From the IMG/VR virus record IMGVR_UViG_3300026274_000003, positions 1 to 61,959 of that record: a stretch of 61,959 bases of DNA. The stretch is one strand, 5' to 3'. Position 1 is the first letter of the stretch. Each line of letters opens with the position of its first letter. Positions 21,313 through 47,056 of the stretch are shown here, in pieces. The stretch is from a virus. Taxonomy: Duplodnaviria > Caudoviricetes. The notes under the pieces were generated by a model that searched no databases, had not been told where the DNA came from, and saw nothing but the letters and a program-made list of their open reading frames with translations. The position numbers and the translations under genes are program-made.

Positions 21313-21439
21313 ACCAGAATCATGAGTTCTCCCTGGGTTTCACATCGTCCGTGAAGGGTCTCAAGTACCCTTGGAATCGATCATAACCTCATTGAATTCC
21401 TCTAGGAGAATGTTCCTGAGGATGGATATGTAGTTAAGG
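21313..21439 (+). ncRNA. Unknown structured element, copy 1
   Basis: 40/47 nt identical to 46922-46968 (manual alignment); nested stems gagttc/gaattc, gggtt/aacct, atcg/cgat, aagggt/accctt. Confidence 0.6.
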
Positions 21440-21457
21440 AAGACTGGTATTGGAGAG

Positions 21458-21575
21458 TAGCCACAATCGAGAGTTCTATCTGGGTTTGATGTCATTGGTA
21501 AAGGGTCCTAGAGGTCCATCTTTATGATAGAAACCTCCATGAAATGTCTTAGAGGGGGATGATATGTGGTAAAGG
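21458..21575 (+). ncRNA. Unknown structured element, copy 2 (tandem, ~147-nt period)
   Basis: aatc..gagttct..ctgggttt..aagggtc..aacctccatgaa..gatatgt.gt.aagg shared with copy 1; stem tgtcat/atgata replaces atcg/cgat. Confidence 0.55.
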
Positions 21576-21630
21576 TTCGAGAGGAGGGTAAGCTCACTAG
21601 ATTAGTTATAGAGTGGTTTAAATGATAAAG

Positions 21631-21658
21631 AAAAAGCCACCCGTAGTGGATGGCTTTT
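21631..21658. terminator. Bidirectional intrinsic terminator
   Basis: aaaaagcca-cccgtagtgga-tggctttt. Confidence 0.75.
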
Positions 21659-21676
21659 ATCTTATTTGTACTATGC

Positions 21677-23089
21677 TTATCGTTTGCTTAAGCACATGTT
21701 ATAGAAGTTGGTGAGTTCTGGGAACTGCTCTAGGAATTTAACCTTACGTCTAACCTCGTACTCTTCGTAGAATAGCGCGAAGTTTTTATGATGTTCTTCG
21801 AGCTTGTAATCGGGGTATGGTTCATACATATAAGCCAGTAGCCGTTCCATTTGATCTACTTCTTCCAGATAGAAGCGTCCCCGTTGATCTGGACTAGTTT
21901 TTCGTGTGTACTGTTGCATGAACTTTGATATACGTTCTTTGAACTCGTCTTTAATTTCGGTTGGGAGGACACGAACGTCTTGGAAGTCTGGCCATCGCAA
22001 ATAGTTGATCATCATTGGAACTCTATTCCAAGCATCAGCTTCATTGAATTCAACTCGCATATCCCAGATATCTTTCAAGAACAGGTCAAAGGTGCTTACG
22101 CTAAGGGCATTGAACGTAATCATGAAGTTTAGATTTGCTTTAGTGCTAGCCAAGAATCTACGGCAGTTGCTCATAAACTTATCATAGTTCATGCCTGTAC
22201 GGATGTAATCTGCTTGTTTACCGTGTGCTTCTGCACTTGTGTAAATGTCAATCTTGTTTACCAGGGGTGCAATTTCATTACAGTAGTTGATGAGTTTAGT
22301 AATCAGATCATCAGGAACCATCATATTGGTGTTGATTGAAATATTAAGTTCTTTACGTGGGTGTTCCTTGATGTATTCGAATACACGCCAAGTATGTTTG
22401 CTTAACAGTGGTTCGCCACCGGTAATGCGGAACGTGTCGAGATTCTGGTAAAGGTCTGGCCACCATTGCCAAAAAGCATCTACGTATGGGTTATGTTCCT
22501 TATGTGGAATTGGCATTTTTTGTACTGCTTTGAGTGAATCAAGACTGCCATTCAAATAAGTTGTGGGGTATGGACCATGACGTTCAATTTCTTCCATCCA
22601 CTTACTTGATACTTCGGGTGAGCAGTACATACATTTAAGATTGCAAGTGTTCTCAAATGCAACCTCAAGATATGAGGGCATGATGTTCTCACCGATACCA
22701 GAATCCAAGACTCTCTGTAGATGGGGATATGACCATTCCAAATTTGCACTTTTATATGTGCGATCACTTATATGGTCCCCGGGTAGATCTTCCACATTCC
22801 AGCAATATTGGCATTCTTTTGGGCGTTTACCATTCAGCATTTCTAAACGGCGATCCATTTTGAATTCTGTGTTATGCAATGCTGATGGATTTTTTTTAAT
22901 CTCTGACACTGGAATAATGTGTGTCATTGGATGATGACATGAGTGTGTATGCCCATTCATGAGATAAACGGTTGACTGCAACCACTTAGCCATGCACATG
23001 GTATTTGATTCGAATTTTTGTTCGATGTCGTCCATATTGCTTTTTAGCTTTATGATACGAATTTCGTTTTGTGATTTTTGTTCTGACAT
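21677..23089 (-). CDS. Twitch-domain radical SAM protein
   Basis: N-terminal CMAKW..HSCHH..CQYCW; CNLKCMYC; ITGGEPLL. Confidence 0.93.
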   Translation of the reverse strand: MSEQKSQNEIRIIKLKSNMDDIEQKFESNTMCMAKWLQSTVYLMNGHTHSCHHPMTHIIPVSEIKKNPSALHNTEFKMDRRLEMLNGKRPKECQYCWNVEDLPGDHISDRTYKSANLEWSYPHLQRVLDSGIGENIMPSYLEVAFENTCNLKCMYCSPEVSSKWMEEIERHGPYPTTYLNGSLDSLKAVQKMPIPHKEHNPYVDAFWQWWPDLYQNLDTFRITGGEPLLSKHTWRVFEYIKEHPRKELNISINTNMMVPDDLITKLINYCNEIAPLVNKIDIYTSAEAHGKQADYIRTGMNYDKFMSNCRRFLASTKANLNFMITFNALSVSTFDLFLKDIWDMRVEFNEADAWNRVPMMINYLRWPDFQDVRVLPTEIKDEFKERISKFMQQYTRKTSPDQRGRFYLEEVDQMERLLAYMYEPYPDYKLEEHHKNFALFYEEYEVRRKVKFLEQFPELTNFYNMCLSKR

Positions 23090-24012
23090 TAGTCATTCCT
23101 TAGTTTGAAACTTTCGCGAAAGAAGTCGCTAGCTTTGTCATCTAAAATTGGAAACAGAATTTTAGTTTGGCTTTCAATCCAATCGCCACATTCGCGAATA
23201 TTTTGATCCAAAAATGCTTCATCATACGTCCAACCAGTAGCTGTTTTCTTAATATCAAACAGCTCTGGGTTTGCAAAGTTCCATTCACTATCAAACCAGT
23301 CGTAGTCTCTGATTTGCGTGTAATCCCAATGAGGATCGATCATCTTCATAAGACCGAATCGAGTCCCATACATGGCCCATTTGCCGTATTGAACATCCGC
23401 CCCGACACAAGCCCAAATACGAAGGTTGCGTAGATTTACTGCATGCAACTTTGATTTCATCTCAGCAGCTTTGACTCGTTGTCCTTGATCCAAAGAAAGC
23501 TTTACTGCTTCTCGGTAACCAACACGCCATGCTTGATATGGGCTACCGTTGTTCCATACTTCACTGAATGTTTGATGTACTTGTTGATAGTCTTTTTCCC
23601 AACAGAAATCAACCGCTTTTCTAGGATCATCGCTGTTTTCATGTGAATTCATATTCAACACGAATTGCGTTGACCAGAGCTTCAAGCCGCCGTTACCATA
23701 CATCAAGCCATTTATGCCGTTGAGTGCGTTCCAGCTGAAGCTTTTGTTGATGTCTTTTTGTGGATCGAGATTGACCGTTTGGTCGAAGAATGACGGCAGT
23801 ACGATGTTGTCTGCATCAACGGTAATGAACCAATCAGTTTCGCTTTGTTCAGCACACGCACGATGCGCTTGGTCAAAGCCTTTGACGCCGTGGACACGTT
23901 TGGCCCATGGGCATTTGTCGAGTAGATCAGCCCAATGTTTTTCAGCATTGGGCTCGTCATACGATAGGAAGAAAATATCAAATTCAGTTAGCTGTCTTTT
24001 TTCGCTTGCCAT
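23089..24012 (-). CDS. GT-A (GT2-like) glycosyltransferase
   Basis: DIFFLSYDEPNA, RVHGVKG, TVDADN (DxD), NGLMYGNGG. Confidence 0.8.
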   Translation of the reverse strand: MASEKRQLTEFDIFFLSYDEPNAEKHWADLLDKCPWAKRVHGVKGFDQAHRACAEQSETDWFITVDADNIVLPSFFDQTVNLDPQKDINKSFSWNALNGINGLMYGNGGLKLWSTQFVLNMNSHENSDDPRKAVDFCWEKDYQQVHQTFSEVWNNGSPYQAWRVGYREAVKLSLDQGQRVKAAEMKSKLHAVNLRNLRIWACVGADVQYGKWAMYGTRFGLMKMIDPHWDYTQIRDYDWFDSEWNFANPELFDIKKTATGWTYDEAFLDQNIRECGDWIESQTKILFPILDDKASDFFRESFKLRND

Positions 24013-24916
24013 GTGGCTTCCTAATGAAAGCCAGGTCAGATGACAATGGATAGCTTGCTACGCCAAATGCCTGGTTTAAGTCTAAAGGCAATTGTAACGT
24101 AATTTTCTTATTTGAGCAAAGACTTTCAACATCAATTGGCAAGGCATCATATACCACATTGGGATCTTTAGGCATAGTCAGGAAGATGGGGCAATTAGCA
24201 GACGATGGCCAGTGCAAAACTGGTTTACCAATAATCTCGAGTGTCAATGTGTTTGCTTTGATATCATGTGTGGCTAATATGCCATCAGTAATTACTTGTT
24301 CCTTGTATGTAACCAATTTATTGAATCTTGAAGTAGGGACCACCTTTGATATGGTTTTTGGTACTTTGGAAATTTCTAAACTATTATAAATGAATACACG
24401 TTCACAGTAGATCGAATAGTCATTCAACTTGAATTCATGAGTAAATGATGCATAGCCTGTTTCAAAGAATTTATCAACATTTAATTCAAACACCGCAACA
24501 ATAACCGATGGATCTCGTTTTGGTGTAAGAGTGAATGCCATCGTATCACCTTTAATATGTCCAAACCTGAAGCCCCTAAAGTCGGCTGGTATAGAGAATT
24601 CAATTAATTTGTCGACTAATGCGATCGATACGATTAATCCGGGACCCATAATTGGCGTTTGGTGAATTTCAATAAATTCACCAACATTAATTGGAATCAT
24701 ACCCTTGGCATTTACTACCACCAATTCAAGTTCTTTTCCGTATTGCTTTCCGTAAATCCAGTCGTTGAGTTGCCATTCATGATTCAAGAATCGCAATGCC
24801 GTTTGTTCATCCATTTCAACAACGGAACATCCTGGGTGGTCATCTTCTAAAGGACGACCTGCTACTGAAAAGATCTTACCAGTATCAGCATCGTAATGAG
24901 CATAAAATATTGTCAT
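23984..24916 (-). CDS. Hypothetical protein
   Basis: 310-aa ORF coupled within operon; internal repeat LT.K.DP.V. Confidence 0.75.
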   Translation of the reverse strand: MTIFYAHYDADTGKIFSVAGRPLEDDHPGCSVVEMDEQTALRFLNHEWQLNDWIYGKQYGKELELVVVNAKGMIPINVGEFIEIHQTPIMGPGLIVSIALVDKLIEFSIPADFRGFRFGHIKGDTMAFTLTPKRDPSVIVAVFELNVDKFFETGYASFTHEFKLNDYSIYCERVFIYNSLEISKVPKTISKVVPTSRFNKLVTYKEQVITDGILATHDIKANTLTLEIIGKPVLHWPSSANCPIFLTMPKDPNVVYDALPIDVESLCSNKKITLQLPLDLNQAFGVASYPLSSDLAFIRKPHGKRKKTAN

Positions 24917-27013: not shown

Positions 27014-27017
27014 AAGG

Positions 27018-27070
27018 AAACTCCACTTGTAGTAATTTAACATTCTAACAAGTGGAGTTTATGGTGTCTA
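27018..27070 (-). promoter_or_regulatory. Sigma70-like promoter within a 13-bp inverted repeat that hides the SD
   Basis: Minus strand TAGACA-N17-TAGAAT; arms 27018-27030 and 27048-27060. Confidence 0.65.
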
Positions 27071-27076
27071 AATTAA

Positions 27077-29100: not shown

Positions 29101-29126
29101 CTATAACTCCGAATACCTTATTGTTC

Positions 29127-29134
29127 TATTTATA
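29127..29134 (-). promoter_or_regulatory. T4-type late promoter
   Basis: TATAAATA on minus strand. Confidence 0.7.
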
Positions 29135-29152
29135 ACTGCTACTTTAATACCA

Positions 29153-29773: not shown

Positions 29774-29924
29774 CTGAATCCTCTGGGGGAAGATTCCGTG
29801 CTGTATTTTTGATATTAACCAAAATTTTACCGGAATCCACGTCTCTGATTAGCAAATGATCCATAACTTGTATGGGGGCATCATCTACTAACCTTTTGTC
29901 GTCGTTGTTGTTTTCTGTATTCAT
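29754..29924 (-). CDS. 56-aa protein missing from the ORF track
   Basis: MNTENNNDDKRLVDDAPIQVMDHLLIRDVDSGKILVNIKN...; HLLIRDVDSGKIL resembles HVLIRDAETKEV of the next gene. Confidence 0.6.
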   Translation of the reverse strand: MNTENNNDDKRLVDDAPIQVMDHLLIRDVDSGKILVNIKNTARNLPPEDSDGNTRQ

Positions 29925-29954
29925 ATTTATATGTTGGATAAAGTGCGTAGATAA
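29924..29954 (-). promoter_or_regulatory. Bipartite late promoter
   Basis: TTATCTACGCACTT-N10-ATAAATA. Confidence 0.7.
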
Positions 29955-31722: not shown

Positions 31723-31760
31723 ATGTTCTCCAAAAGAACAACTAGTTCAATATTTAACAA

Positions 31761-31785: not shown

Positions 31786-34700
31786 TTAAGAAGTCCACTG
31801 ATCATTGTCATCCCATGCTGGAGCAATATCAGTCCATTCAATTGGTGCTGGAGTTACGGTAGGAATTATGTACTTTGGCACCACTAATTTAGCAGTAGAT
31901 ACTGATAATACTTCTTCATTAACTGGATGGTTCACAATAGATGATCCACGATAGCCACGAATTACATTTTCTAACGTAATGGTATTAGCAGTACTATCAA
32001 ATGTTGCTTCCACGAAGTATATCAATTCCTGCCCAACCCACATATAACCAGGATGGTATATCGTACGATCCAATTTAAACATTGACACTAATGGGGTAGC
32101 ATCACTCAATACTGGCGTGATTACCACATTTGTTGATTCTTGCGTCATTGCCGTAACTAAGGTGTAACAATCACTGTCTTCAATTACTGAATAACGATCA
32201 GCAATTCCAAAGTCACGCAATGGATCCAAGAATGTCAAAGTAGTTTCTGGCGATTTTGCATGTGGTGCACGGAATACCGTAATTACTACGTGATCACCAG
32301 CTACCGCAATCACGCCGTTTTCTTCATTCAGTCTAACGGCCATACTGTTTGGACCAAATTCGGCGTAACGATCACGAGCATCTTCATCCCATGCTGGAAT
32401 ATCAAATCCATTATCAGCAGCATTGACATAGTATTGTGTACCTTCAATCAACTTACGACCGTTCAATGTCACCCACAAACTAGCAACGTTGTCATACGTT
32501 CCTGGAATTGGGAACCAGTTATCACCACTGATATGATCATAAGTCACAGTACGCATATCAAATGCATCTGGTTTTGTGAACGTAGTGACAGTCAAACGAC
32601 TAGCATTCGGGAACTGTGGCGCAAAGGCCACCGCATCGCTGTATTGTGCTTGACTTGCATCATAAACGATCAAATCACCAGTAGGAACCACTCCCGCCAC
32701 TGACAGCATCTCGATCTGGTTACCCATCATCAATGCAGTTGCTTGCGCATTTGGATCTGAACTTACCACAGTCCAAGTAAACCCAGTCAAGTCATTTGGT
32801 AATGTATCACCGTATACAATACTCACTGCAATATCAGTACTGTAAGCCTGCATGTTAATCAATCGACCTTCATACATGGTCAAGTTGATAGATGAATCTG
32901 GGTTCGATGGAGACAACACATACTTCTCGTAGAACGTTGGATCATCCCATGTTGATACGTTATCCCATGAATCTTCATCCCAACCAACTGTGATCAGACT
33001 GTTTGGTTCTGGGTGATCAGGATTCAAATTACCCAAGCTGTAACCAGGAGCAGTACCAACAATCATACTGACTATCATTGGTGCACTGTTTCCTTGTGTT
33101 ACGATCAAGTCACTAGCAGCCCAATTTGCACCTAGATTTACCGAACGTGTATTACCAGGCACAATTACATTTTGGCGTACGTCTACACCAAAAATAACTG
33201 GTTGCCAGTTGAATGTTGCTGTAACATTGTTGATGTCTAGAACAGCATCCAATTCCAAAGTAGGATTAGCAGGAGTTATGAATGCTTCGTAAATTCCTGA
33301 ACCCATCACACGCAAACCGTCGACTTCAATAATAGACTGAATATATCTTGGAGCGACTGTCAAACCCAACGCACCACTCAAAGACTCAGAACCCATTGAA
33401 CTCATTGCCAATTCTGTAACTTCAACTATGTTGAAACCAGAATTCACATTCGTCACTCGCATGCTGACTATTTTGATATAGCTGTTCAAAGCTGGAGCAG
33501 TACTAAATGTCAATACGCCGTTAGTTACACCAAAGTTTGTTGCTTGTATTCCATCAATAGTCACATATTGAATCAACGTGTCAGTAGATAATACGTATGA
33601 ATCAACAGTGATTGGGAAACTTACGGTAGTACCATCCCCGTTGAAGTAATTCATGCCAACAATGTTGTCTTCTTCAGTACCAGCAGTATAGGTAGTACCA
33701 CCGTAACCCCATACCACAGCTTGCATTACTGAATTGACATCAGTACCCAAGTAAGTAAATTCTGAGTCACGAGCATCAAATGTTACATCAATCTGTGGTA
33801 CTCGAGTTCCGTTATCATACAAAGCAATTGCTTGCTTTGATTGTGCTGGAATTGGTAATGTGGCAGTATTACTTTCCAGTAAATTCATATTTGTCAATTC
33901 CATCTGTGCCGAACCAGGGGTCCATGTTTGATGGATTTTGATTCGAACACCAGCAACGACATTAACGTCAACTAGTTCTTCTGGGTGATCAGCAGCATGG
34001 TATGGATCTGCCAATGTACTGCCATTGATTATTGCTTCATAAGCCGAATCAGCAGTAGTCAAAGCACCACCATTCAAAATTGCTTGTGGTGTATCAGCAG
34101 CAACTAGCATGATAATAACCGTGTCACCAGCAGCCATTACATCCATGGAGATATAAATTTTCCACAGATTAGCCACATTGCTATCTTGAATAATAATGTA
34201 ATCTTGATTCAACAATGACAAACGACTGCCATTACGGAAAATTTCAATTCTGTGACCAGAGGTATAATCAAATTCTGGCGTCGTTGCATTGAATTGGAAC
34301 AAGAATGCATCCCAAATTCCAACTTGTGAACCAGTGTTGTTTAATTGATTCCAATCAGCATTAAGGTAATTGTCCCAAGTGGTCATGGTTAATGAGTCCC
34401 ACACGTCACTACCGGTATCCAAAGCATCGTTTGGATTATCCCAAGCAGTATCGACCGCAGTAGAGCCACCACCATATGGAATGTTATCCCAGTCGGAAGG
34501 CAAACGGTATGAACCGGCATCAAATTTCTGTGCAAAGTACACGAAACTTGGTGCATTTGTAATCAGGAAATTACCATTTACATCAGGAGCAAATGTCAAC
34601 GCATGCACATCAAACGGTGGGCTTGCATAATTACCACCACTCAAAGTCGCAGCATTGAACAAAATACCCTTCATGATCTTCGACAGAGCTGGTTTGGATG

Positions 34701-37700
34701 TAACATCACCAGACCAATATTCTTTCAAACGATCCATAGCCAAACCATTAGTTTGGATACTATCATCAGATACTCGATCAAATGTCAATGTGACATTGAT
34801 TTTACGGACTTGATTGTTACCAGCTTGCCAATTGTTATACCAATCAGCATAATTACCAGTTTGCAATATGACGATGTCTGCTGGTACATTAGGATTTAAG
34901 ACTCGATATCCAGGCAATGATGCATCAAAATACACTGGCTTATCAAAGTCAGTAGCGTGCACCTGAGCAGTGTCAGAAATACCATACTTACTAATGAAAT
35001 CTCGGATCTTTACGTGATATGGTTTTACTTCATCAATGTAGGCCAATAAGTCGCTAGTGTAGTCAATGCTAGCAATTGGACTAGCAATCAAGTTTGCGTT
35101 AAACCCTTGAATATACATGAATGATGTCTTGAAACACCAGTCAATAAAGTCTTGTTCAGTGTGAGCATATTTGACGGTGCTAAAGAACAAATTGTTCAAT
35201 TCCAACGCGGTCATCACTGAATCTCTTAACGCGTTTATGAAAAAGTTCAATTCCAAACCCATATCACGGTTGTTTACCATTGAAGCAAATGCTATTGGGT
35301 CAAATGCTCCTATAGTAGTACCAGTGATGTCAAGTACTGGACCTGTATTTCCATAGACATTAGGATTGAGCTGAATAGTACCATTCTCTTTTGCCACAAC
35401 GGTCCAAACTCCGTTACTGAATGACTGCCACATCCAACGACCTTGACCATCGTTATTAACTAGAACATAGCCAACAGTTGGATTAGCACCAAGGGCAAGG
35501 TCGCGGTCTGTTTGTGAGTTGAATACCAAACTAGGTACCATAGTGGAATCATATCCAGTAGCGTACCAGTCAACAACCGTGAAAATGCTACTTGTATCGT
35601 AACGTTGGGTTTCAGCTATTACAAATGTTGTGCCATTCCATTCCCATACGGTCCAGAAGTTTGCCGTTGATGCATTGGCCGTAACCAAGATGCGGGTACC
35701 TACAGTCAAGCCGGTCAATGCGCTAAGAGCGGTTAATGACGAGACTTGTTGGTCCCAACGAGTTGACACTGCAAACGGATTGTTGGAATCCTTCGTAGTC
35801 TGCATAACAGACCAGAAAGGAGTATCGGTACCAAAATTGGCAACTACACCAGAAGGAACATTGGCATTTGCCAATTCTTGCAAAGTACCATAGCGAATTT
35901 GACCTTGATATTCATTAGGAATTGGCTCGATATAAGCGGAACCAAGCGTCTGAGTCCATTGCAAATATTGTTGATTATGTTCAACAGCAGTCAATGCAGT
36001 CAATGCATATGGGCGTTCATCACTTAACAACAAACTAGCGAAATAATTGTTCAAATACTGAACAATATGCTTTCTAGCGTTTGTTGAATTTATAAACCAA
36101 CTCTGACCATCACGCAAGCTATCGCCAACCTGAGCTGTTGCATACAGCTTTGGATTTGGCACTGGATTACCCAATGGATCTCGAGCTACCATGGAAGTTA
36201 CCATACTGGTAAACAACTCGGCTGAAGGTAAGCTCAATGGATCATTTGGACGTAGCAATTGCCATTCTGAATGCTTGCCAACCTTGGCATCATTTTTTCT
36301 AACACGAATTTGAATCGCGCTTGTTGGTGTCAAGTATTGGCTAACTGCTTTCACAATAAGCGAATTAGCGGCAATTGGAGCAATCCATGAAATACCATTG
36401 CTAGCCGGGTCAACGATGATTGCGGCCGCACTGGCTGCACTAATGGTACGGAATGCAACTGCTGGTGTTGTCTGGCGATTCTTTACCCAAAAATAATATT
36501 TGGTTACGAACGTACCTGAGTCGTTATCGTAGACTTGGCTTTCAACCCATGATGGAGTGGTAGCATTGTAAATGTCCCCATCATAAGTGGTTGGATCTGA
36601 TCCTGCAACAAAGTTGGTATGCCAGTCTACTGGTGAAATATCACTTTCTGTCCATTCGTATAATTCAACAGCACAATCAGGCGCTACTGAACCCCAGTTT
36701 GCTTGGCGGTATTGCATTTCCGTTGCGTAGTCATCACCAGCTTTGCTTAGGTCATTGGTTTCAGACAATAAGAAACGGCAAGTACGCAAGTTCCACCAAA
36801 TACGACCAACTTGAGACGCATCCCATTCCAGACCTAATGCTGTTTCTGCACCTTGATTGTATCGAGCTGGATCGTACTCTTGCTTGTATGCCACTTCGCG
36901 CATTGCGGCACCAGGAATCAAACTTTGAACTGGATCAAAAGATACAATGTCCTGATACAGCAATGGATTTGCCTGCATCAAATTACTGGTATTGTCCAAA
37001 GCAGTAACGCTATCATATAGCGCTATAGAATCGATGCGATCTCTATAAATGCGTGGAGCTTGTGTTCTGAACACGTTGAACTGTTGTTCACTCGCACTCC
37101 ATTCACATACAATCCAACGTTTTGCATGAGCGGGATATTGGTTTTGTGTTGATTTCAAGAAGCCCAAGTCAACGTATACCAATTCACCGTCATTCAATAA
37201 TGACCAGTATGCAGTCAATTCCTTAGGCAATGAACCACCGGCAGTAGGCAATACTGATTGATATATGTCAGTATTGGTAAAGACTGGAATGGAACCCAAG
37301 TAAGCATATGATGGATTAACACCAAATACGGTTGCAAAGGTTGAACTATTGTTTTCGTAGAAGCGTAATGACACCAAACGCAATACGATCGGAGCACCAG
37401 TATTTGCAACTAGGTTTCCGTTAGTATCAGTAGTTGGAACATAAGCAACTGATACGTTTACTGCCGCTTCGATAGTTACCACATCGCCATTTACGGCAAT
37501 AGCTCGATAAACTCCAGCAATATCTGGGTCTGTTCCTACAGGCGATGCCAAATAAATGTATTCACCAGCTACGATATTGGTTGGATAGAACAATGTAATA
37601 TCCAAGCCAACAGAACCACCAACGATTTGAACTATTGTATTAGGCAGTGTTTCGGTTGATGCTGGCATGGCACGCAATACGTCCCAGTCATTACATGAAA

Positions 37701-40700
37701 TAGTAACGTTTGTTGTTTGCAGAGTCCCAGTATTGTCTACATAAGTCTTCGATACTAGATGGTCACCCTTGTCGTATACCCAGACACGTGATGTATCTTC
37801 AATCGTAACCGTACCAGCCTGAATTCTAGTGTTCAGTGAATCAAAAGAACTAGCAGTGACTTCAACTTCGGTAGTTCTAACATAACCTGCTGTTGGTAGA
37901 TCATTGTCGTGTATGCGGTAATCTGACTTCTCAGGGAACAATGCGACAATTGGTTCTCCTGACGCAGTATTTCCTGGTGGCATGACCCAACGACTGTCGT
38001 TGTTATTGTCATTGGAATACAAAGTCATAGTCAAACTGTCAACATTCTGCAACGCAGTTAATGCGGACGCATCTAGTGTTTCGTCAGTGACATCCACCAC
38101 ATCGATACGTTGTGGTTCTTGTCTGATATCATCGCTAGTCAACAAGAATTCGAATACGTTTTCTTGCATAACGCTACCATAGTTACTAACACGGAATGCC
38201 CATTCTTCAAGGAATTCCAAATTAGTAGAAGCAGTCAACACGGTATTACGCAACAATTTGTCAAGAGCGCCAGGCGTTCCCTTTTGTTGAATCATACCTT
38301 GATAGAATTCAAACTGATTTAGTTCACTATCAAAGATATTATCCAAGAACGACTGTGATTGGTAACCAATTTGATGACGTGCATAGTCACGCATTACTGA
38401 GTAAACTGGTTGCTCAATACTGTACATGTTGCGAACGTCTTCAACTGTTCTATCAAAACTAGGAGTCATCAAGTTGTCAGTGATCAAGAAACCAGGAGCG
38501 TTCAACGTACCAGTCCAAGATGTACTGATGTTGAAGTTCATTCTGATTCGATTTTGACGCAAGTTGAACAATGGTTCGTAGATCACATCATTGAATTTCG
38601 TAATGTTATCAAAGATCAAACAATGCTCAACTTCAGCAATACTCAAACGTAACCCGTAAATACCAGAATTGGTTGCTGATACTGTGATTTCACCGTTTAG
38701 ACGATTGACCTTAGTTGCTTTAATATCTACAGCGGCACCAGTTTTATCCAAGATTGAATACACACCATTAATGATCTGTTCAATTGGTTGAATAGCACCA
38801 TGTGCGGTCTTAAATTTCACACCATCAGCCAATGGGCTAAGGCTGATGAATGTGCCTGGAGCCCATGACACTTGTGCCCAGTTTAAGAATTGACGAACAG
38901 CTACACGGAAATCGTTATTGGCATTATTATCTGAATTGAAGCTATCAAATACCCAACCAGCACTTTGCAGATACAGTTCATAACCAGCCAAGAAGTTTGC
39001 CACATCTTGTGGTTTATAAAACACAGTACCGTAAGGAACAGTTTGCACCGTTGCATTTACTTGTGCTTTGGTGTAAAACAGTAAAGATGGTGGAATAGCA
39101 GTAGACAAGCCGGCTTGCAAACTCCAGTATTGTTGTTCAAAAGCAGAACCACTTGTGTGAGTTTTCAAGCATTGGTATACCGCATTTTCGTAGGCAATCA
39201 ATACACCAGTTTGATAGTATGTATTTGGTCTCCAAGGATTGGACGGTGTTGGCATTGAACCAAGAGCAATCGTGACCTTTGGACCAGTTGTGTTAGGTGG
39301 CAAGATATTGAATACTGGATTCAGTACGTCATATCCTAGAACCGACCAGCCATTACCAGTCCACTTTACAATTACGCCACTGTAGAATTCTTCACTAATA
39401 CTTGGTGAATTATACAATACGACATTAACGTTTTCACTAGGCAATACCCCTTGACTTTCAGTACTTGCAATCATAGTCTTTGAGTCAGTGAATGCCCCAA
39501 CCTTATAGCCCAATTGTACGCCAAGTCCTCGAACGTGATCACCAAAGGTAGTAGTGATATCTTGACCCTGCGAAGTAACGTAATCGGATATCCACTGTTG
39601 CAGACCAATTACCTTCAAGGATGCTTTGTTCACAACTTCGTTGTGAACTGTGTATTCAGTGAAGTGTTTACGACGGCCGAGTGACTTACTAATTATTTGA
39701 TCTGATTGCGTTGGAAATACGGTAATGTTGTCAAGTGGTTCCCAATTGGTTTCTACGAATCGAACTGGTTTCAGCAAGTATCCCATCTCTGATAGGATGA
39801 AACTTGTATATTCGCTAGTCAACCAAGTGTATTCAACTGGAGCACAGTCACCAAATACCCAGTTATTTGCGAACAATTCTTCATTACCAAGGTTCACCAC
39901 GATACCGGCAGCAATAGGATCCAACAGAACACCATTGGCATCAACTGGAATGTACTTGCTGAAGTTTGCTCGAGCAAATGTGGGATCCAACACTGGAGCA
40001 GACGGTGTTCCTACGTTACCAGCTGTAATAGCGGCTACCAGTGCGTCTCGTTGAGCTGGAATCGTCCAGCTATAGTTAGCATCCCAAGTAGCGGGTTTGG
40101 TAGTGAATCCAAGCATTTCCCAAGGATGCGTATCTGGGCGAACTGTATCGAAGTAATAACGATAGATGCCACGCCAGTGTCCTGGAATTGCTTGACCATC
40201 AATATCAAGTACTGAACTAAAGTTCCAAGTCCATACATTGTTTTCATCAAAATTCTTATTAGTGCGGAAGTCTTTTTGACCTTGAGCAGCCCATCTTTCA
40301 AATATCGGCGTAGCAACTTGAGTGTATTCAGTAACTGAATAGTCAGTTGTACGGAACTTACCAGGAGTATGTGCCATGACGTCAAACTGTGGACGTCGTG
40401 TATTTTGCAACGATGAATCACAAGCACTGTAAAGCTGCTGTTCGTAGGCAAACATAATTTGATCACGCACGTCAATACTAGTGGCAACCCCGTCAACCAA
40501 CAATCCAGTCGCAGTGATTTGAACATTAGTAGATGCCACTACGGTGAAGCCTGGCAAAATACTACCATCGTGACCACGCAACAGCAAGTATGTGTTTGCG
40601 CCGCTAACTTGTAGGAGATATTCAGGAGTCCACAATGGTGTGATACCCAGATATGCACCGGATGCAGGAATGAAGTAGTTTGCACCACCCATACCGTTGT

Positions 40701-42975
40701 TAAAGAACGAGAATGACGAAGTCTTAGTGATTTTCAAATAGTTCAATGCTGTTGCCAATGAGGCAGCAACAGTTGAAATAGTGCCAGACGTGTACATCGT
40801 AGTGAGATACTGAACAAGCTTTGCACGATAGCGGGCGTATTCACGCGACACGTACAAGAATGTTTTCATAACATCTAGATTGGTATTAGCCCCAAGCAAC
40901 ATTGATTTCAACAATGTACCACGATTTTGAACAATATTAGTACCAGTAGTCAGTACGCGGGACTGGCTTGGGTACAACCAGTTATTAGCAGCCAGGATCT
41001 GTTGGAATTGCGGGAACCAATCATTACGCGAAATAGTTGTGATATCGTCGTTATTTGGATTAGCCTGCAAGTTTTGTGGGATTTCATAGAACCCAGTAGT
41101 TGAATCAATAGCTTGCGTGGTTTGACCAGCATAGCGCCAGTTGGTTTCATAATTGACAACAACGTTATTGTTACTGTCAAGTGTCATGTTGGTAAAATAC
41201 TTCAACCCTGTATAAGTTCCAGCAGTTGACGTGATGACATCAGTATTGAGATTATTGGTGAATTCAAACGATCCATACGTATTGAATACTGGTGCAATAT
41301 TCAATACTGAGTCAACTGCATTAGTTCCAGTTGTATCTATAGAGTAGGAAAAAATCTGAGATCCAGCAAAGCTCGAATTCAAGTATGAACTGCTATTACC
41401 AAAGCTCACACCATTGTTATCGAATAGGTCAAACAACGGGGCAGCATTGCTGTATTCTTGTGCTTTTGCCCAAGTAGTACCGTTAAAGAAATATTCAATA
41501 GGAATATCAGGATTTGGTTCAACGTAAGACAGATCAACAACCGCGACCATATCATATAATGTAGCAGCAACATCAGCAGTTAGCGTGATGTTGTTATTCG
41601 CATCTACACCAACCACATAGATTTTGTTTGCAATAGTAGTATCAGTTGAATTCAAAACCAATACTCGTTGACCAGCAACTAGGGCATAAGTTCCAATTGA
41701 TACGGTATTAGCGCTTGAACCAACAACCACATTGCCGGAAGTCTTGTTTTCGGTTGTCGCATTAAACAAAGCCCAAGTTGAGGTACTTGTGTCGTATACC
41801 ACATCGACATTGGCTTGACGGCGAACACCGTAATTAAACAACTTCAAATTGTTGTCGAATTCAATAATTGGGCGAGTTGAGTTTGCAGGTAGGTAGTTGG
41901 GAGCACTGTAAATCACCAAGTTGGTATTATACCAATGATTGGACAAACTCCAAGGATTTTCGTCTATCGCATCACGCTCAATGGTCCAGTATTGCGGCTG
42001 TGATTTAGCGATCACCTTACCAGATTGATATTGCAAGTCAATGACCATAACGTCATTAGCTTCGGTCATTTCAACCACATACGCCAAGCCAGTATCCCAA
42101 CTATTGGTGTCCCAAGCGGCAACGTCCCAATTATGGTTCCAAGTGTCATCGATGACTTCTACACGCATTCCACGAAGTAAAGCTGGTGCTGGATCCAAAG
42201 TAATTTCTGGGTAAACAAACTGTTGATCTCTAATAATCAGCTTACCGTTACTAATTGAAGAAATTGTTTGATCTTCAACGGCATAAGCAGTTACTGGCTC
42301 AGGATAGGCATACGTTTGTTGACCATTGATGTTTTGTACGAAATTACCGTTTGTCCAAATTTGAATGACAGCACCAAGACTTGGAGCCGTAGTGAAAGTG
42401 ACTATGTCATTTGCATAGGTAAAATTGGTATTTGGTATTCCAGCCACAACCACTTTGACATCAACGATGGAATTAGCTAAAGCGGCTGGTGCCGGGAATG
42501 CAACCTTGGTACCATCACCAGTATAAGTGTTAACTGGTATAGTCATAGTCATAATTGGAGGACCATTTGGCAACCAGTAATAGTTGCGATAGTTTTCCAA
42601 TTTGTCAATGTTGATTGGTGGGCACCATGAGTAATAGTCAGTCTCAAAGAGACGGTTGTGATTGTTTACCAACGCACCTTGAAAACGCAGCTTATTTGTC
42701 AAGTCGATATAGAACAACAAATCTTGTTCGTTCCCATTGGTATCATCACTAACCATTGCTGGTTCTAATTGATAGAATGAGCGTTCGGTATCGTACTCAG
42801 GCTTGTAGAAGTCAGTTGTTGGATTATAGTAGGATGGCTTTCTTCCGATATAAGCATTTACATTAGTCAATTCGCCTGGTTGAAATACCTGGTCAATTGT
42901 TGCATTAAAGAACTTCTGTAGGGTTGTCGTTTGATTGATAACTGGAAGTTGCTTTATAAACTTGCGTTGTGCCAT
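31786..42975 (-). CDS. Giant virion structural protein (baseplate wedge, gp7-like position)
   Basis: 3729-aa ORF after gp6-like gene; EEWAFR, YIDEVKPYHVKIR; CBM5/12-like WRPNTYY...YQC...HTS; GDG...F..AP modules. Confidence 0.8.
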   Translation of the reverse strand: MAQRKFIKQLPVINQTTTLQKFFNATIDQVFQPGELTNVNAYIGRKPSYYNPTTDFYKPEYDTERSFYQLEPAMVSDDTNGNEQDLLFYIDLTNKLRFQGALVNNHNRLFETDYYSWCPPINIDKLENYRNYYWLPNGPPIMTMTIPVNTYTGDGTKVAFPAPAALANSIVDVKVVVAGIPNTNFTYANDIVTFTTAPSLGAVIQIWTNGNFVQNINGQQTYAYPEPVTAYAVEDQTISSISNGKLIIRDQQFVYPEITLDPAPALLRGMRVEVIDDTWNHNWDVAAWDTNSWDTGLAYVVEMTEANDVMVIDLQYQSGKVIAKSQPQYWTIERDAIDENPWSLSNHWYNTNLVIYSAPNYLPANSTRPIIEFDNNLKLFNYGVRRQANVDVVYDTSTSTWALFNATTENKTSGNVVVGSSANTVSIGTYALVAGQRVLVLNSTDTTIANKIYVVGVDANNNITLTADVAATLYDMVAVVDLSYVEPNPDIPIEYFFNGTTWAKAQEYSNAAPLFDLFDNNGVSFGNSSSYLNSSFAGSQIFSYSIDTTGTNAVDSVLNIAPVFNTYGSFEFTNNLNTDVITSTAGTYTGLKYFTNMTLDSNNNVVVNYETNWRYAGQTTQAIDSTTGFYEIPQNLQANPNNDDITTISRNDWFPQFQQILAANNWLYPSQSRVLTTGTNIVQNRGTLLKSMLLGANTNLDVMKTFLYVSREYARYRAKLVQYLTTMYTSGTISTVAASLATALNYLKITKTSSFSFFNNGMGGANYFIPASGAYLGITPLWTPEYLLQVSGANTYLLLRGHDGSILPGFTVVASTNVQITATGLLVDGVATSIDVRDQIMFAYEQQLYSACDSSLQNTRRPQFDVMAHTPGKFRTTDYSVTEYTQVATPIFERWAAQGQKDFRTNKNFDENNVWTWNFSSVLDIDGQAIPGHWRGIYRYYFDTVRPDTHPWEMLGFTTKPATWDANYSWTIPAQRDALVAAITAGNVGTPSAPVLDPTFARANFSKYIPVDANGVLLDPIAAGIVVNLGNEELFANNWVFGDCAPVEYTWLTSEYTSFILSEMGYLLKPVRFVETNWEPLDNITVFPTQSDQIISKSLGRRKHFTEYTVHNEVVNKASLKVIGLQQWISDYVTSQGQDITTTFGDHVRGLGVQLGYKVGAFTDSKTMIASTESQGVLPSENVNVVLYNSPSISEEFYSGVIVKWTGNGWSVLGYDVLNPVFNILPPNTTGPKVTIALGSMPTPSNPWRPNTYYQTGVLIAYENAVYQCLKTHTSGSAFEQQYWSLQAGLSTAIPPSLLFYTKAQVNATVQTVPYGTVFYKPQDVANFLAGYELYLQSAGWVFDSFNSDNNANNDFRVAVRQFLNWAQVSWAPGTFISLSPLADGVKFKTAHGAIQPIEQIINGVYSILDKTGAAVDIKATKVNRLNGEITVSATNSGIYGLRLSIAEVEHCLIFDNITKFNDVIYEPLFNLRQNRIRMNFNISTSWTGTLNAPGFLITDNLMTPSFDRTVEDVRNMYSIEQPVYSVMRDYARHQIGYQSQSFLDNIFDSELNQFEFYQGMIQQKGTPGALDKLLRNTVLTASTNLEFLEEWAFRVSNYGSVMQENVFEFLLTSDDIRQEPQRIDVVDVTDETLDASALTALQNVDSLTMTLYSNDNNNDSRWVMPPGNTASGEPIVALFPEKSDYRIHDNDLPTAGYVRTTEVEVTASSFDSLNTRIQAGTVTIEDTSRVWVYDKGDHLVSKTYVDNTGTLQTTNVTISCNDWDVLRAMPASTETLPNTIVQIVGGSVGLDITLFYPTNIVAGEYIYLASPVGTDPDIAGVYRAIAVNGDVVTIEAAVNVSVAYVPTTDTNGNLVANTGAPIVLRLVSLRFYENNSSTFATVFGVNPSYAYLGSIPVFTNTDIYQSVLPTAGGSLPKELTAYWSLLNDGELVYVDLGFLKSTQNQYPAHAKRWIVCEWSASEQQFNVFRTQAPRIYRDRIDSIALYDSVTALDNTSNLMQANPLLYQDIVSFDPVQSLIPGAAMREVAYKQEYDPARYNQGAETALGLEWDASQVGRIWWNLRTCRFLLSETNDLSKAGDDYATEMQYRQANWGSVAPDCAVELYEWTESDISPVDWHTNFVAGSDPTTYDGDIYNATTPSWVESQVYDNDSGTFVTKYYFWVKNRQTTPAVAFRTISAASAAAIIVDPASNGISWIAPIAANSLIVKAVSQYLTPTSAIQIRVRKNDAKVGKHSEWQLLRPNDPLSLPSAELFTSMVTSMVARDPLGNPVPNPKLYATAQVGDSLRDGQSWFINSTNARKHIVQYLNNYFASLLLSDERPYALTALTAVEHNQQYLQWTQTLGSAYIEPIPNEYQGQIRYGTLQELANANVPSGVVANFGTDTPFWSVMQTTKDSNNPFAVSTRWDQQVSSLTALSALTGLTVGTRILVTANASTANFWTVWEWNGTTFVIAETQRYDTSSIFTVVDWYATGYDSTMVPSLVFNSQTDRDLALGANPTVGYVLVNNDGQGRWMWQSFSNGVWTVVAKENGTIQLNPNVYGNTGPVLDITGTTIGAFDPIAFASMVNNRDMGLELNFFINALRDSVMTALELNNLFFSTVKYAHTEQDFIDWCFKTSFMYIQGFNANLIASPIASIDYTSDLLAYIDEVKPYHVKIRDFISKYGISDTAQVHATDFDKPVYFDASLPGYRVLNPNVPADIVILQTGNYADWYNNWQAGNNQVRKINVTLTFDRVSDDSIQTNGLAMDRLKEYWSGDVTSKPALSKIMKGILFNAATLSGGNYASPPFDVHALTFAPDVNGNFLITNAPSFVYFAQKFDAGSYRLPSDWDNIPYGGGSTAVDTAWDNPNDALDTGSDVWDSLTMTTWDNYLNADWNQLNNTGSQVGIWDAFLFQFNATTPEFDYTSGHRIEIFRNGSRLSLLNQDYIIIQDSNVANLWKIYISMDVMAAGDTVIIMLVAADTPQAILNGGALTTADSAYEAIINGSTLADPYHAADHPEELVDVNVVAGVRIKIHQTWTPGSAQMELTNMNLLESNTATLPIPAQSKQAIALYDNGTRVPQIDVTFDARDSEFTYLGTDVNSVMQAVVWGYGGTTYTAGTEEDNIVGMNYFNGDGTTVSFPITVDSYVLSTDTLIQYVTIDGIQATNFGVTNGVLTFSTAPALNSYIKIVSMRVTNVNSGFNIVEVTELAMSSMGSESLSGALGLTVAPRYIQSIIEVDGLRVMGSGIYEAFITPANPTLELDAVLDINNVTATFNWQPVIFGVDVRQNVIVPGNTRSVNLGANWAASDLIVTQGNSAPMIVSMIVGTAPGYSLGNLNPDHPEPNSLITVGWDEDSWDNVSTWDDPTFYEKYVLSPSNPDSSINLTMYEGRLINMQAYSTDIAVSIVYGDTLPNDLTGFTWTVVSSDPNAQATALMMGNQIEMLSVAGVVPTGDLIVYDASQAQYSDAVAFAPQFPNASRLTVTTFTKPDAFDMRTVTYDHISGDNWFPIPGTYDNVASLWVTLNGRKLIEGTQYYVNAADNGFDIPAWDEDARDRYAEFGPNSMAVRLNEENGVIAVAGDHVVITVFRAPHAKSPETTLTFLDPLRDFGIADRYSVIEDSDCYTLVTAMTQESTNVVITPVLSDATPLVSMFKLDRTIYHPGYMWVGQELIYFVEATFDSTANTITLENVIRGYRGSSIVNHPVNEEVLSVSTAKLVVPKYIIPTVTPAPIEWTDIAPAWDDNDQWTS

Positions 42976-45900: not shown

Positions 45901-46421
45901 ATACCAAACGGATTGGTTGTCGGGAAAGCAGCATTGAGTACGACTACAAACTGTTCCATCCAATCTGGATTATCCGGATCATTCCATGTGATTTGAGTAT
46001 TGTTTAGATTGACGCCAAAGCTGTCAAGTACGCTTTGTGACGTTGACACATTAACGATCTTCACCAAACCTCTGGCAGACTGGGCACGACGGGCGTTATA
46101 GCTCAAAAATCTAGCTAGACGCAATACACTTTCACGAGCTTGTGCAGTTTCAAGGAAGTTTTCACGAGCATTGACGTCTGTACGAAATGCCAATGTACCA
46201 GCGATCCATGAGATCAGATCGATTAAGGCAACAAATTCTGATCGTTCGATCCAGTCATTGAAGTCTTCTGGGTAATTGGTTTGAATATACGACTGTAGTG
46301 CCAAGTTGATACTTGCCGGATCACTTGCATTAAAGTTGATCTGGGTGAAGGCTCGATACAGTACGGTCCAATCTTCCCCAGCAAACAATTCAGTTTGGCG
46401 AATTTGTTGATTTGATGACAT
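42975..46421 (-). CDS. Baseplate wedge subunit (T4 gp6-like)
   Basis: YPEDFNDWIE.SEFVALID, ARENFLETA..RESVLRLA, FGDGTFG, QNRMVSGEDY. Confidence 0.9.
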   Translation of the reverse strand: MSSNQQIRQTELFAGEDWTVLYRAFTQINFNASDPASINLALQSYIQTNYPEDFNDWIERSEFVALIDLISWIAGTLAFRTDVNARENFLETAQARESVLRLARFLSYNARRAQSARGLVKIVNVSTSQSVLDSFGVNLNNTQITWNDPDNPDWMEQFVVVLNAAFPTTNPFGIPLKTDLISSITSQLYAVSNQSNPSCVYSFDANVNGTSDSFEIVNMDFDTTGFSELQPDPSQPFHMAYCNDGLGNGSANTGFFMLFKQGTLNQTTYYLQDPIENRTIDLSTNNISQTDVWVQTLDGSNNILEQWTPVPAVITDNITYNSVPASVQGIFSVITTDNDQVTLRFGDGTFGEVPVGNLRVWYRTVNGLQYQLRTSDMQNCTIAVPYIDVTGRNQTLTLTFTLQESISNAVASETIDDIRRRAPQAFAAQNRMVSGEDYNVYPLTSNEIVKMHAVNRIYSGHSRYLDINDPTSTYQDTVVYSDDGLVYLMPTTQYIQIPITANLTPEQITLNKLQPLLQDITVRDYFLNLWMESANAYRPTDGVDYGMDIASLFSGAPDNEVQWAASIGAGYSAVGSFVFYPYASSATVNSLDSYLSVGSLLKFEWNDLSTGTPIATAQWAEVIQAPIVQNTGNTLSLLSLNATAITLNQSIPDGAALTMICPVFRSTLATQLAVSQLTTELQQVQNEITTKSPFDLYYQFNVNTVLQTSTQLPGTWLIMDQGVVPAASNGIPAVFVASVRYLSSMFWTIEILTGTKFVFQSANNVEWYNDDSGQVIDAVSGLAMTDHITFMDPTLSQLSLDIASSMYETDGFIDPTRIVVTPTDSDGDGSPDNPEVFAKILNSSKNINDGWIFFLGDPTTQDSNAEPQLDLEYYKYTGVSGQSLWPLAGWNDLTVGTDVFYYNNTITPANSGFYIFNGTQSYDTSLTSTDRSTGDYVIMQGAANLPFQWKHYAGLDVRIDPAITNVIDAFVLTTEYDFLVRQWIAAGCDPTSVPVAPTDVDLASQFSDLEQYKMFSDEIIWRPVQYKYLFGSTSESAVQAQFKVVTIPNTTMSDGEIRSNIISAINNYFDVNKWEFGETFYFTELAAYVHIQLATAISSFVIVPLSPNGVFGNLFEVRCNSNELFISTAQVSDIVIITSNTSSNLRIS

Positions 46422-46819
46422 TAGTTGTTCCCCGTATCAGACCAAAGGGCTGATTCACTGTTATTGAAAGCGGTTGTAAAAGTTCCCATTATGTTCAATG
46501 GAACGTATGTAAGAAGGATTGCTAAACTGATGCCGCTGTCCAGTATCGTGACATCCACATTGTTAACCACCAATCTGGTGTCTTGCTGGCAAATACGAAT
46601 AGCCTCAGCAACGATTTGTTGCTGGTTCACGTCTGTCATTTGCTCCTCCAGATAATTCCAAATGGCACATCCTTGATCTGGTCGCATGACGCGTTCGCCA
46701 ATCATAGTATGAAATGCTATGTAGAGATCCTGGTTAATTAAATCAAGATCATACAGGGTATACTTACCCGTGGAATCACCCGATATGGTGCTGAAACCTA
46801 CAAACGTGTAATTAGCCAT
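46421..46819 (-). CDS. Baseplate wedge subunit (gp25/GPW-like)
   Basis: GERVMRPDQGC.IW, DTRL. Confidence 0.9.
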   Translation of the reverse strand: MANYTFVGFSTISGDSTGKYTLYDLDLINQDLYIAFHTMIGERVMRPDQGCAIWNYLEEQMTDVNQQQIVAEAIRICQQDTRLVVNNVDVTILDSGISLAILLTYVPLNIMGTFTTAFNNSESALWSDTGNN

Positions 46820-46843
46820 TATTAAATTTATCCATTATGTACT

Positions 46844-46874
46844 TATTTATTGAGTGAATTAAGTACTCAGATAA
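46844..46874 (-). promoter_or_regulatory. Bipartite late promoter
   Basis: TTATCTGAGTACTT-N10-ATAAATA. Confidence 0.7.
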
Positions 46875-46879
46875 TGACG

Positions 46880-46907
46880 AAAACCCAAGCTTTTACACTT
46901 GGGTTTT
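46880..46907. terminator. Bidirectional terminator
   Basis: aaaacccaag-cttttaca-cttgggtttt. Confidence 0.75.
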
Positions 46908-46920
46908 GTATTTGTTTGTG

Positions 46921-47056
46921 AACCAGAATCAATAGTTCTCTCTGGGTTTCCTTTCGTCCGTGAGGGGTGTTTTATCCCCGACACGATCATTAACCTCCAT
47001 GAAGTATTCCTGAAAGATTCGAGGAAGAAGCCATTAGAGTTACTACCAGGGAGTAA
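46921..47056 (+). ncRNA. Unknown structured element, copy 3
   Basis: accagaatca..agttctc.ctgggtttc...tcgtccgtga.gggt..cgatcat.aacctc..tgaa..gagg shared with 21313-21421. Confidence 0.6.

Follow-up and report, generated by a model that had tools for sequence, protein, structure and literature searches.

What is a short repeat doing when it returns, copy after copy, on the strand opposite to the genes around it? The question is raised by a 61,959-bp IMG/VR virus record (the window in what follows, also called G000; completeness 14% by CheckV), which carries three such copies on its + strand. To judge from our sequence searches, the repeat is a clade-specific family of roughly 0.5-Mb T4-like megaphages. 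Its units form hairpins and do not code for protein, their clusters are regularly spaced, and each cluster is typically followed on the 3′ side by a G+T-rich tract. We favor, with a probability of about 0.42, the reading that the clusters are polar initiation sites, most likely for R-loop or D-loop priming of DNA replication; from base composition we infer the single-strandedness of the tract, the priming and any role in replication.

Size and Distribution of the Repeat Family

When the window was searched with the motif AATCNNNAGTTCTNNCTGGGTTT, allowing up to three mismatches, three matches were found, all exact and all on the + strand, at 21318, 21465 and 46927. Dinucleotide shuffles gave an expectation of 0.05 matches, and 0/100 shuffles reached three. 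Repeat detection returned a single 47-nt family beginning at 21313, 21460 and 46922, with spacings of 147 and 25,462 nt, in which copies 2 and 3 are 72% and 85% (40/47) identical to copy 1. These positions, the 40/47 match between copies 1 and 3, the ~147-nt period of copies 1 and 2 and an extra tail shared by the latter pair had all been reported in an initial annotation of the window, and each was recovered, the copies themselves far above the shuffle level. The shared tail, GATATGTRGTWAAGG, is a local duplication.

A covariance model (R1) was built from nine copies and run on the window and its relatives, a search already proposed in the initial annotation, and it recovered a large family. 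At E ≤ 1, R1 matched three sites in the window, 23 in G001, a 523,836-bp phage record with direct terminal repeats and 100% completeness, and 16 in G002, a 290,322-bp relative that is 68% complete; the working set comprised the 40 matches at E ≤ 0.012. The original count of three copies thus gives way to dozens per genome. A loose motif scan of the whole of G001 and G002 added no further full copies. Scanning IMG/VR with an exact pattern brought up the same 523,836-bp and 290,322-bp contigs as true relatives, most other matches being due to chance, and a stricter pattern added three IMG/VR contigs and 22 metagenome stretches, with soil and peat metagenome contigs among the sources. On 27 other loci R1 made 25 matches, distributed over 19/27 with none in 8/27, and two further IMG/VR records gave one and three matches. 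Apparent copies in bacterial genomes, in the metagenome-assembled genome loci L196 and L197, which are among the eight loci that gave no match, were set aside as pattern matches without R1 support whose number fits chance. Agrobacterium phage Atu_ph07 (490 kb) and Sinorhizobium phage Phosso (469 kb), with ~40% identity in a baseplate wedge protein, are the closest cultured relatives, and the Rak2-like jumbo phages come next.

Across the family, two blocks, GAGTTCTNNCTGGGTTT on the 5′ side and AACCTCCATGAA on the 3′ side, enclose a variable hairpin, and a short A/T-rich hairpin usually follows. All four parts are present in unit 1 of the window (21313..21422, + strand; R1 match 21318-21405, 78.7 bits, E 1.5e-15), where the blocks read ACCAGAATCATGAGTTCTCCCTGGGTTT and AACCTCATTGAATTC. 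Unit 2 (21460..21568, + strand; R1 match 21465-21552, 72.6 bits) stands in tandem, 147 nt past unit 1, and unit 3 (46922..47030, + strand; R1 match 46927-47012, 83 bits) lies between gp25-like and gp5-like baseplate genes. The stretches AGTTCT..CTGGGTT and ACCTCCATGA are near-invariant. Because conservation sets in ~12 nt ahead of TTCT and is lost ~30 nt past ACCTCCATGA, the unit is about 85-110 nt long and not ~120-150 nt, as had been supposed at first. The core between the blocks comes in ~6 unrelated sequence types of 23-49 nt, each of which folds into a hairpin closed by GGGTT/AACCT. In the three-unit clusters at G001:126080-126356, G001:67101-67353 and G002:130158-130445, the sequences between units are able to pair across a unit; at G001:126080, for example, TTCCTCACGAA stands before and TTCGTGAGGAA after the third unit, which hints at a higher-order structure of whole clusters.

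Synteny and Spacing of the Clusters

At syntenic positions of both G001 and G002, each of the three window sites has a counterpart (unit 3, for instance, at G001:95697/95747 and G002:99427/99495), and most G001 sites likewise have one in other phages. Every G002 site that was checked has a G001 partner, and the sites found in G001 alone lie in regions not represented in G002. Flanking proteins at syntenic sites are only 61-75% identical, with the blocks unchanged; since neutral intergenic DNA would be randomized at that level of divergence, the blocks appear to be under purifying selection. At syntenic sites the variable cores are not alike, and exchange among the copies is implied.

The 16 clusters of G001, of one to three units each, lie at 27.7 (partial), 67, 96, 126, 166, 197, 226, 265, 308, 342, 370, 374, 418, 467, 469 and 522 kb. 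Two short gaps aside, the circular gaps between them measure 28-53 kb, and the coefficient of variation (CV) is 0.41, compared with 0.92 for random points (P 2e-4). The clusters of G002 are more even still (CV 0.17, P 1.5e-5). Across genomes the clusters lie 28-54 kb apart, a spacing more regular than chance. Two partial copies, at G001:27738-27785 and G002:30418-30464, are syntenic and located inside an open reading frame (ORF); they retain a perfect 5′ block, have neither a canonical 3′ block nor a G+T tract, and fall where the regular spacing predicts a site.

A Polar G+T-Rich Tract

GC and keto skew step up at the clusters, an effect that is not explained by gene-strand switches and that is absent from control intergenic gaps (142 and 59). 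A step of this kind is symmetric under reverse complement, and the profiles were hence re-plotted in the element's own frame. In that frame, a strong G+T excess of 0.75-1 kb is present only 3′ of the cluster and only on the repeat strand, which lends independent support to the + strand polarity assigned in the initial annotation. Keto skew in successive 250-nt bins 3′ of the clusters is +0.18, +0.19, +0.14 and +0.08, followed by ~+0.03 out to 4 kb; on the same side GC skew declines from +0.30 to +0.09, with C making up only 14.6% of the bases, and on the 5′ side mean keto skew is +0.007. The mean over the first kb 3′ of the clusters is +0.150, and 24/28 clusters reach at least +0.11; across the genome, 1.5% of 1-kb windows reach at least +0.12. 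We also considered the skew step as a bidirectional, origin-like N-domain and dropped this idea, the element-frame profile being one-sided and local.

In the window, the tract 3′ of units 1 and 2 (21569..22750, + strand) is G+T-rich and C-poor, and crosses a minus-strand terminator into an antisense radical-SAM gene. GC skew is +0.23 and +0.17 in the intervals covering 21250-21999, vs. -0.05 to -0.14 upstream, and keto skew over the first kb is +0.132. The tract 3′ of unit 3 (47031..48250, + strand) coincides with the 3′ half of the gp5-like gene, which is antisense to it; between 47000 and 48249 GC skew is +0.10 to +0.22 and AT skew -0.19 to -0.32, vs. ~0 upstream, and keto skew over the first kb is +0.222. 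In the last 330 codons of the gp5-like gene, third-position keto skew on the coding strand is -0.30, compared with a reference of +0.07 ± 0.08.

The same bias at third positions was seen in the larger genomes. Of the ORF segments within G001 tracts, 28/28 have positive third-position keto skew on the element strand, at +0.293 for sense and +0.287 for antisense segments (baseline ±0.02), and in G002 the means are +0.364 for sense (8/9 positive) and +0.108 for antisense segments (3/6 positive). The gene for an NTase-like protein reaches +0.57. Tracts recur in 18/18 loci from other contigs (about 12 of them distinct), and GGG occurs in them at 12.7 per kb vs. 2.7 per kb for CCC. In an unbiased scan of G001 with 750-nt windows, |keto skew| was at least 0.14 in 32 windows, 13 of which abut a cluster; among the nine strongest (≥ 0.20), eight abut a cluster with the right sign. 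The interval G001:514550-515300, with a keto skew of -0.251, is among the strongest and has no repeat within 7 kb; it may hold a diverged or lost unit, or its skew may have another cause. A skew scan of Atu_ph07 showed no regular tracts of this pattern.

Structure and Coding Potential

Minimum-energy folds of all three window copies reproduce the nested hairpin described in the initial annotation, in which a GGGTT/AACCT closing stem leads to a middle stem (ATCG/CGAT, TGTCAT/ATGATA or TCGT/ACGA) and on to a G-rich apical stem. GGGTT and AACCT pair in nearly all copies of the family. Whole single copies have ordinary folding energies on either strand (z -0.48 to +0.45), while the variable middle, compared with shuffles of the core, has a mean z of -1.21 and is negative in 51/56 copies; the structural signal therefore sits in the variable middle. 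In type-A cores, one stem pair is G-C in 15/19 and A-U in 4/19 copies. RNAalifold consensus structures for MAFFT alignments of the type-B, type-A and post-block sequences were poor or empty, with one clearly compensatory pair per set, because stem registers shift through indels. The short A/T-rich hairpin that follows CCATGA has modest support (mean z -0.64, 37/57 negative). Although the + strand folds at lower energy in 39/56 copies, this is simply because it is G+T-rich. Against shuffles, the two strands are alike (z -0.59 vs. -0.71; z of the + strand lower in 24/57; Wilcoxon p 0.41), and with this control for composition we gave up calling the strand from folding energy, as well as the earlier argument that G-U mispairs point to a + strand RNA.

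No known RNA family had been recognized in the element, and our scans agree. At the gathering threshold the window as a whole had 0 Rfam 15 matches, and a relaxed cutoff of E ≤ 1 gave nothing on the units and only weak matches on terminator hairpins outside them; ARAGORN found 0 tRNA/tmRNA genes in the window. On the minus strand, the three window copies encode RPFTDDVKPRENS, GPFTNDIKPR and TPLTDERKPRENY, each followed by a stop (tails ..PFTDDVKPRENS, ..PFTNDIKPR and ..PLTDERKPRENY), so the shared P(F/L)T(D/N)(D/E).KPR frame noted previously is real. The suggestion attached to it, of a decayed coding remnant, fails on the larger sample of 57 distinct copies: taken modulo 3, the distances between the two blocks divide evenly (19/20/18), no reading frame is open in more than 23/57 copies, the blocks are invariant at all codon positions, and no single conserved frame runs across the unit. 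Two leader-peptide ideas, an M-x-S-S-x-W-V mini-ORF and a FEEFxLGL..NLHELFV frame, hold in subsets of the copies and were rejected for lack of a family-wide frame. The element is thus conserved, hairpin-forming and non-coding.

Gene Setting and Transcription

The genes flanking all three window units are on the minus strand, and the units are antisense to both neighbors. Units 1 and 2 lie between two radical-SAM genes, one at 20268..21167 (minus strand; PF04055 E 7.3e-9; phrog_21308) and a radical-SAM-like gene under the first tract at 21677..23089 (minus strand; phrog_14086 E 2.4e-13). The latter gene is followed by an intrinsic-terminator-like hairpin with an 11-pair stem and a T tail (21632..21658, minus strand). 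Unit 3 has on its 5′ side the gp25-like baseplate wedge gene (46421..46819, minus strand; PF04965; phrog_43) and, directly 5′ of the unit, a terminator-like hairpin with a 10-pair stem (46880..46907, + strand); the gp5-like baseplate hub/lysozyme gene under the second tract (47075..49057, minus strand; phrog_13211 E 5.9e-45) includes an SLT domain. Eight nt from unit 1 is a late-promoter-like TAAATAT word, the reverse complement of ATATTTA (21303..21309, minus strand), which faces gene 20268-21167. The same ATATTTA word adjoins many first units just on their 5′ side, in G001 and G002 as well, and is probably the late promoter of the divergent gene.

Contexts are mixed in the other genomes. Units are sense between co-directional genes at G001:370253, 374154, 418025, 466776 and 469060, and occupy divergent regions, pointing at the downstream gene, at G001:126080-126356 and 226195-226447. 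Three loci lie inside ORFs, namely G001:166383 and G002:171623 (sense, in frame) and G001:197193 (antisense, at the 3′ end of the ORF). In the NTase-like protein the unit forms an in-frame insertion of ~40 residues (..FEEFYLGL..NLHELFV..), which is present in the nine closest of 23 aligned homologs and absent from the other 14; the orthologs of G001 and G002 have cores of different types. Paralogous flanking genes were considered as a source of the repeat, and all-against-all BLASTP found none.

Four metatranscriptome runs contain the region as strandless contigs, all of which break near the units. In run X5, an RNA-library contig corresponding to 21374-21493 of the window has between its conserved blocks another core (25 other letters), which matches the unit of locus L175, so that a relative's unit is represented in the same RNA library.

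Several other features of the window deserve mention. Two similar terminator-like hairpins (AAAAGCCCCG..CGGGGCTTTTT) at 181-230 and 9679-9728, each followed by similar sequence, constitute a small separate repeat family. Words like TATAAATA occur 25-35 nt upstream of minus-strand structural genes, in reverse complement on the + strand, at about 15525-15540, 29128-29140, 29915-29930, 31745-31756, 46843-46852, 53343-53352 and 61862-61872, and their sequence and placement suggest that this megaphage has late promoters of the T4 type. A 13-codon ORF is found at ~21178-21219 (minus strand), just upstream of the radical-SAM gene 20268-21167, with a strong AAGGAGG Shine-Dalgarno sequence at ~21224-21230; beyond this region lie the radical-SAM-like gene 21677-23089 and then unannotated genes up to 27043. 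This group may form a peptide-modification cassette. Finally, 31786-42975 (minus strand) is a single 3,729-aa ORF, whose counterpart in Atu_ph07, by the baseplate wedge gene, is annotated as a T4-like virion structural protein.

A Proposed Polar Initiation Site and Its Alternatives

An excess of G and T at synonymous sites is the footprint expected of a strand that has been single-stranded and subject to C-to-T and A-to-G deamination, and it is known for the displaced strands of mitochondrial replication and for non-template strands. A process that starts at the repeat and runs ~1 kb in the 3′ direction, keeping the repeat-strand DNA single-stranded, could leave such a footprint through deamination, or the tract might be selected to be G-rich. 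The likeliest process would be R-loop or D-loop priming, as at T4 oriF/oriG, ColE1 or the mitochondrial H-strand origin; ColE1 RNA II and the mitochondrial LSP/CSB H-strand origin follow the same R-loop logic. On this view, the repeat would supply the structured 5′ portion of the primer transcript or else a DNA hairpin that an initiator recognizes. The regular spacing would also make sense, because polar origins would split the half-megabase genome into ~35-kb replicons. Among the candidate roles listed in the initial annotation, the RNA-primed origin fits the new evidence best, and the small RNA or decoy and the mobile element have lost ground. The fuller proposition, that the ~0.5-Mb phage clade replicates from ~15 evenly spaced, sequence-defined polar origins, each composed of a hairpin repeat and a 1-kb R-loop/D-loop zone, is more doubtful and we put it forward tentatively.

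A number of observations weigh against priming at the clusters. The skew is local, strong for ~1 kb and weak to ~4 kb, and not replichore-wide; it would therefore mark, at most, a zone of initiation and is no sign of fork travel. Tracts are missing at 4/28 clusters, namely the two partial copies, G002:1806 and G002:202919, and some of the top skew jumps sit far from any repeat. Without the two partial syntenic copies, the P values for spacing weaken to 1e-3 (G001) and 0.01 (G002), and the two genomes are syntenic relatives rather than independent replicates for these statistics. A promoter scan, which covered the sigma-70 type only, gave 0 sites at either window locus and none for the + strand, as the initial annotation had also concluded, and the late-promoter-like word beside first units faces the opposite way. 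RNA-library depth is 2.4-2.9 over the element vs. 7-17 in neighboring genes, although this difference can also be rated neutral either way. No gp59-type helicase loader was matched, in a search whose control was silent as well. Lastly, R1 has no match in Atu_ph07 or Phosso, so that the nearest cultured relatives are without the repeat.

Behind replication priming there remain, in this order, polar transcription, a nick or clamp-loading site, and selfish DNA. The first of these makes the repeat a promoter, a structured 5′ leader or both for abundant ~1-kb + strand transcripts, running sense or antisense to the underlying genes, and makes the tract a transcription-associated strand asymmetry with no part in replication; it also takes in the small-RNA and decoy idea, and we regard it as unlikely though deserving of attention. 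The polarity and length of the tract fit an exposed non-template strand, at the five G001 sites where the unit is sense between co-directional genes it precedes the next start codon by 6-45 nt, terminator-like hairpins come after several clusters, and the element region is found in RNA-library contigs. However, the sigma-70-type scan that is unfavorable to priming is equally so here, the RNA depth is lower over the element than over the flanking genes, and the tract in the window runs past a terminator. A GC skew of +0.30 is large for transcription alone, and neither the even 28-54 kb spacing nor the antisense run through essential baseplate genes is readily explained by it. The discrete small RNA envisaged in the initial annotation suffers in the same way, since no sigma-70-type promoter was found, the RNA-library contigs are strandless and depth over the element is low.

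It is improbable, in our estimation, that the repeat is a DNA-level site for some other polar process, such as a site-specific nick with strand-displacement synthesis, loading of the sliding clamp by which T4-type late promoters are activated, or a landmark in recombination or packaging. A binding site in plain duplex DNA needs no hairpin covariation, and no nickase or HUH enzyme was identified, in a search of Y1 alone. Yet the phage carries T4-type late-promoter words, regular spacing suits a signal acting at a distance, and displacement synthesis extending a nick would likewise leave the repeat strand exposed 3′ of the site; on present evidence, this reading and replication priming are inseparable.

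The mixed gene contexts, taken alone, resemble those of selfish DNA, and the repeat might be a palindromic element that has spread and is tolerated, mostly between genes, after the manner of repetitive extragenic palindromes (REP/BIME), MITEs (miniature transposable elements with inverted repeats) or Rickettsia palindromic elements (RPEs). The family is dispersed, multi-copy and on both strands, with imperfectly inverted terminal blocks (TTC..TGG.GTT vs. TTC.TGG..GTT); it sits in frame, as ~40 aa, in 9/23 aligned NTase-like proteins and is found, in antisense, within the 3′ end of another ORF, and RPEs are described as inserting in frame into genes in the parts of PMC10969869 drawn on here. 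The exchange of cores implied at syntenic sites is of a piece with this. Set against these features, the Y1/RAYT transposase (PF01797) and reverse transcriptase (PF00078) were found in 0/3 records, including the complete G001, with controls positive in 6/14 and 3/14 genomes, respectively. The longest shared flank word (4.64 vs. a null of 4.67 ± 0.16; 56 copies, with fuzzy boundaries and old age) gives no target-site-duplication signal, and the presence/absence polymorphism of MITEs was not observed, as the window sites and the checked G002 sites all have G001 partners. Spacing is regular and not random, sites and invariant blocks are kept at 61-75% protein identity, and insertion leaves the polar 1-kb synonymous-site skew at each site unexplained. 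The non-autonomous mobile element suggested in the initial annotation is thereby weakened, and a selfish origin has in our view only a slim chance of being the explanation. That the repeat is a decayed coding remnant or a minus-strand small peptide gene (..KPREN frame) can be dismissed almost entirely on the modulo-3 distances and block invariance given above, together with flanking ORFs that are not paralogs, despite the frame shared by the three window copies.

How half-megabase genomes are copied within one infection is the question on which the repeat bears, and a shared element at regular intervals with a polar mutational footprint is a concrete, testable origin candidate. If the proposed layout holds true, it would be a eukaryote-like or archaeon-like multi-replicon arrangement built from one repeated origin module, which is not known to have been described for any phage or bacterium. 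For huge phages, reports have been limited to whole-genome GC-skew patterns, by which ~30% look bidirectional and ~30% unidirectional, according to the parts of PMC7162821 drawn on here. In the literature searched, supplements excluded, we found described neither a jumbo or huge phage with multiple, repeated or evenly spaced origins nor a comparable polar element, repeated at even intervals, in any phage. The combination of repeat and keto-skew tract is a simple signature with which other large mobile genomes can be screened. Were replication not involved, a repeat beside which any gene takes on a strand-specific 1-kb bias at synonymous sites would still be an unusual constraint on phage gene evolution.

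Comparison with Known Systems

By the tests listed above, the element is outside the Rfam families and the REP/RAYT, promoter-early stem-loop (PeSL), retron and diversity-generating retroelement (DGR) elements, and probably outside the MITEs as well. Like REP/BIME sequences and REPINs, it is a short, hairpin-forming, dispersed repeat, clustered and mostly intergenic. It differs from them in the absence of Y1/RAYT, in its longer units with a variable core between invariant blocks, in the three loci within ORFs, where REP/BIME elements are strictly extragenic, and in its regular spacing and the polar skew tract at its sites. With RPEs and MITEs it shares palindromic repeats able to sit in frame in proteins (PMC10969869, in the parts used), but it shows no target-site-duplication signal, occupies syntenic and mostly intergenic sites, and is non-randomly distributed. 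The PeSLs of T4-type phages, in the sections of PMC4122927 consulted, are a conserved intergenic stem-loop repeat that commonly lies between small ORFs and through which copies probably exchange sequence, and our element, too, is a conserved intergenic stem-loop repeat of T4-like genomes whose copies have probably exchanged sequence. PeSLs, however, are composites of terminator and promoter that cluster in hyperplastic regions, whereas the units described here have no sigma-70-type promoter and no T (U) tail to their hairpins, and are evenly spaced, also among core baseplate genes.

A further parallel is offered by ssoA of rolling-circle plasmids and the complementary-strand origins of G4 and M13, in which conserved short blocks are set in variable, covarying hairpins that act in one orientation on single-stranded DNA. 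Described in these terms, the likeness lies in the conserved blocks around variable hairpins. Those origins act on a template that is already single-stranded; for our phages, the search for a rolling-circle Rep covered Y1 alone.

The nearest functional counterpart may be found in T4 itself. T4 has at least five origins with no common sequence motif, as far as the portions of PMC3016281 used here indicate, whereas ~15 regularly spaced sites share one repeat in the present case. Its oriF and oriG consist of a promoter and an unwinding element, at which persistent R-loops leave the non-template strand single-stranded (PMC3016281, same portions); here neither a middle-mode nor any other promoter was found, nor an A+T-rich unwinding element, and initiation of replication is putative. 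On the other hand, both are polar, belong to T4-like phages, lie inside or beside genes at several sites per genome and are found near compositional shifts, T4 origins being located near shifts in compositional bias (PMC3016281, same portions). G-rich non-template tracts favor R-loops in the mitochondrial case, in the parts of PMC6317783 drawn on here, and the G-rich composition of the tracts is consistent, if indirectly, with the single strand that an R-loop would expose. Although no sigma-70-type promoter was found for it, the element would appear to work most like an R-loop origin.

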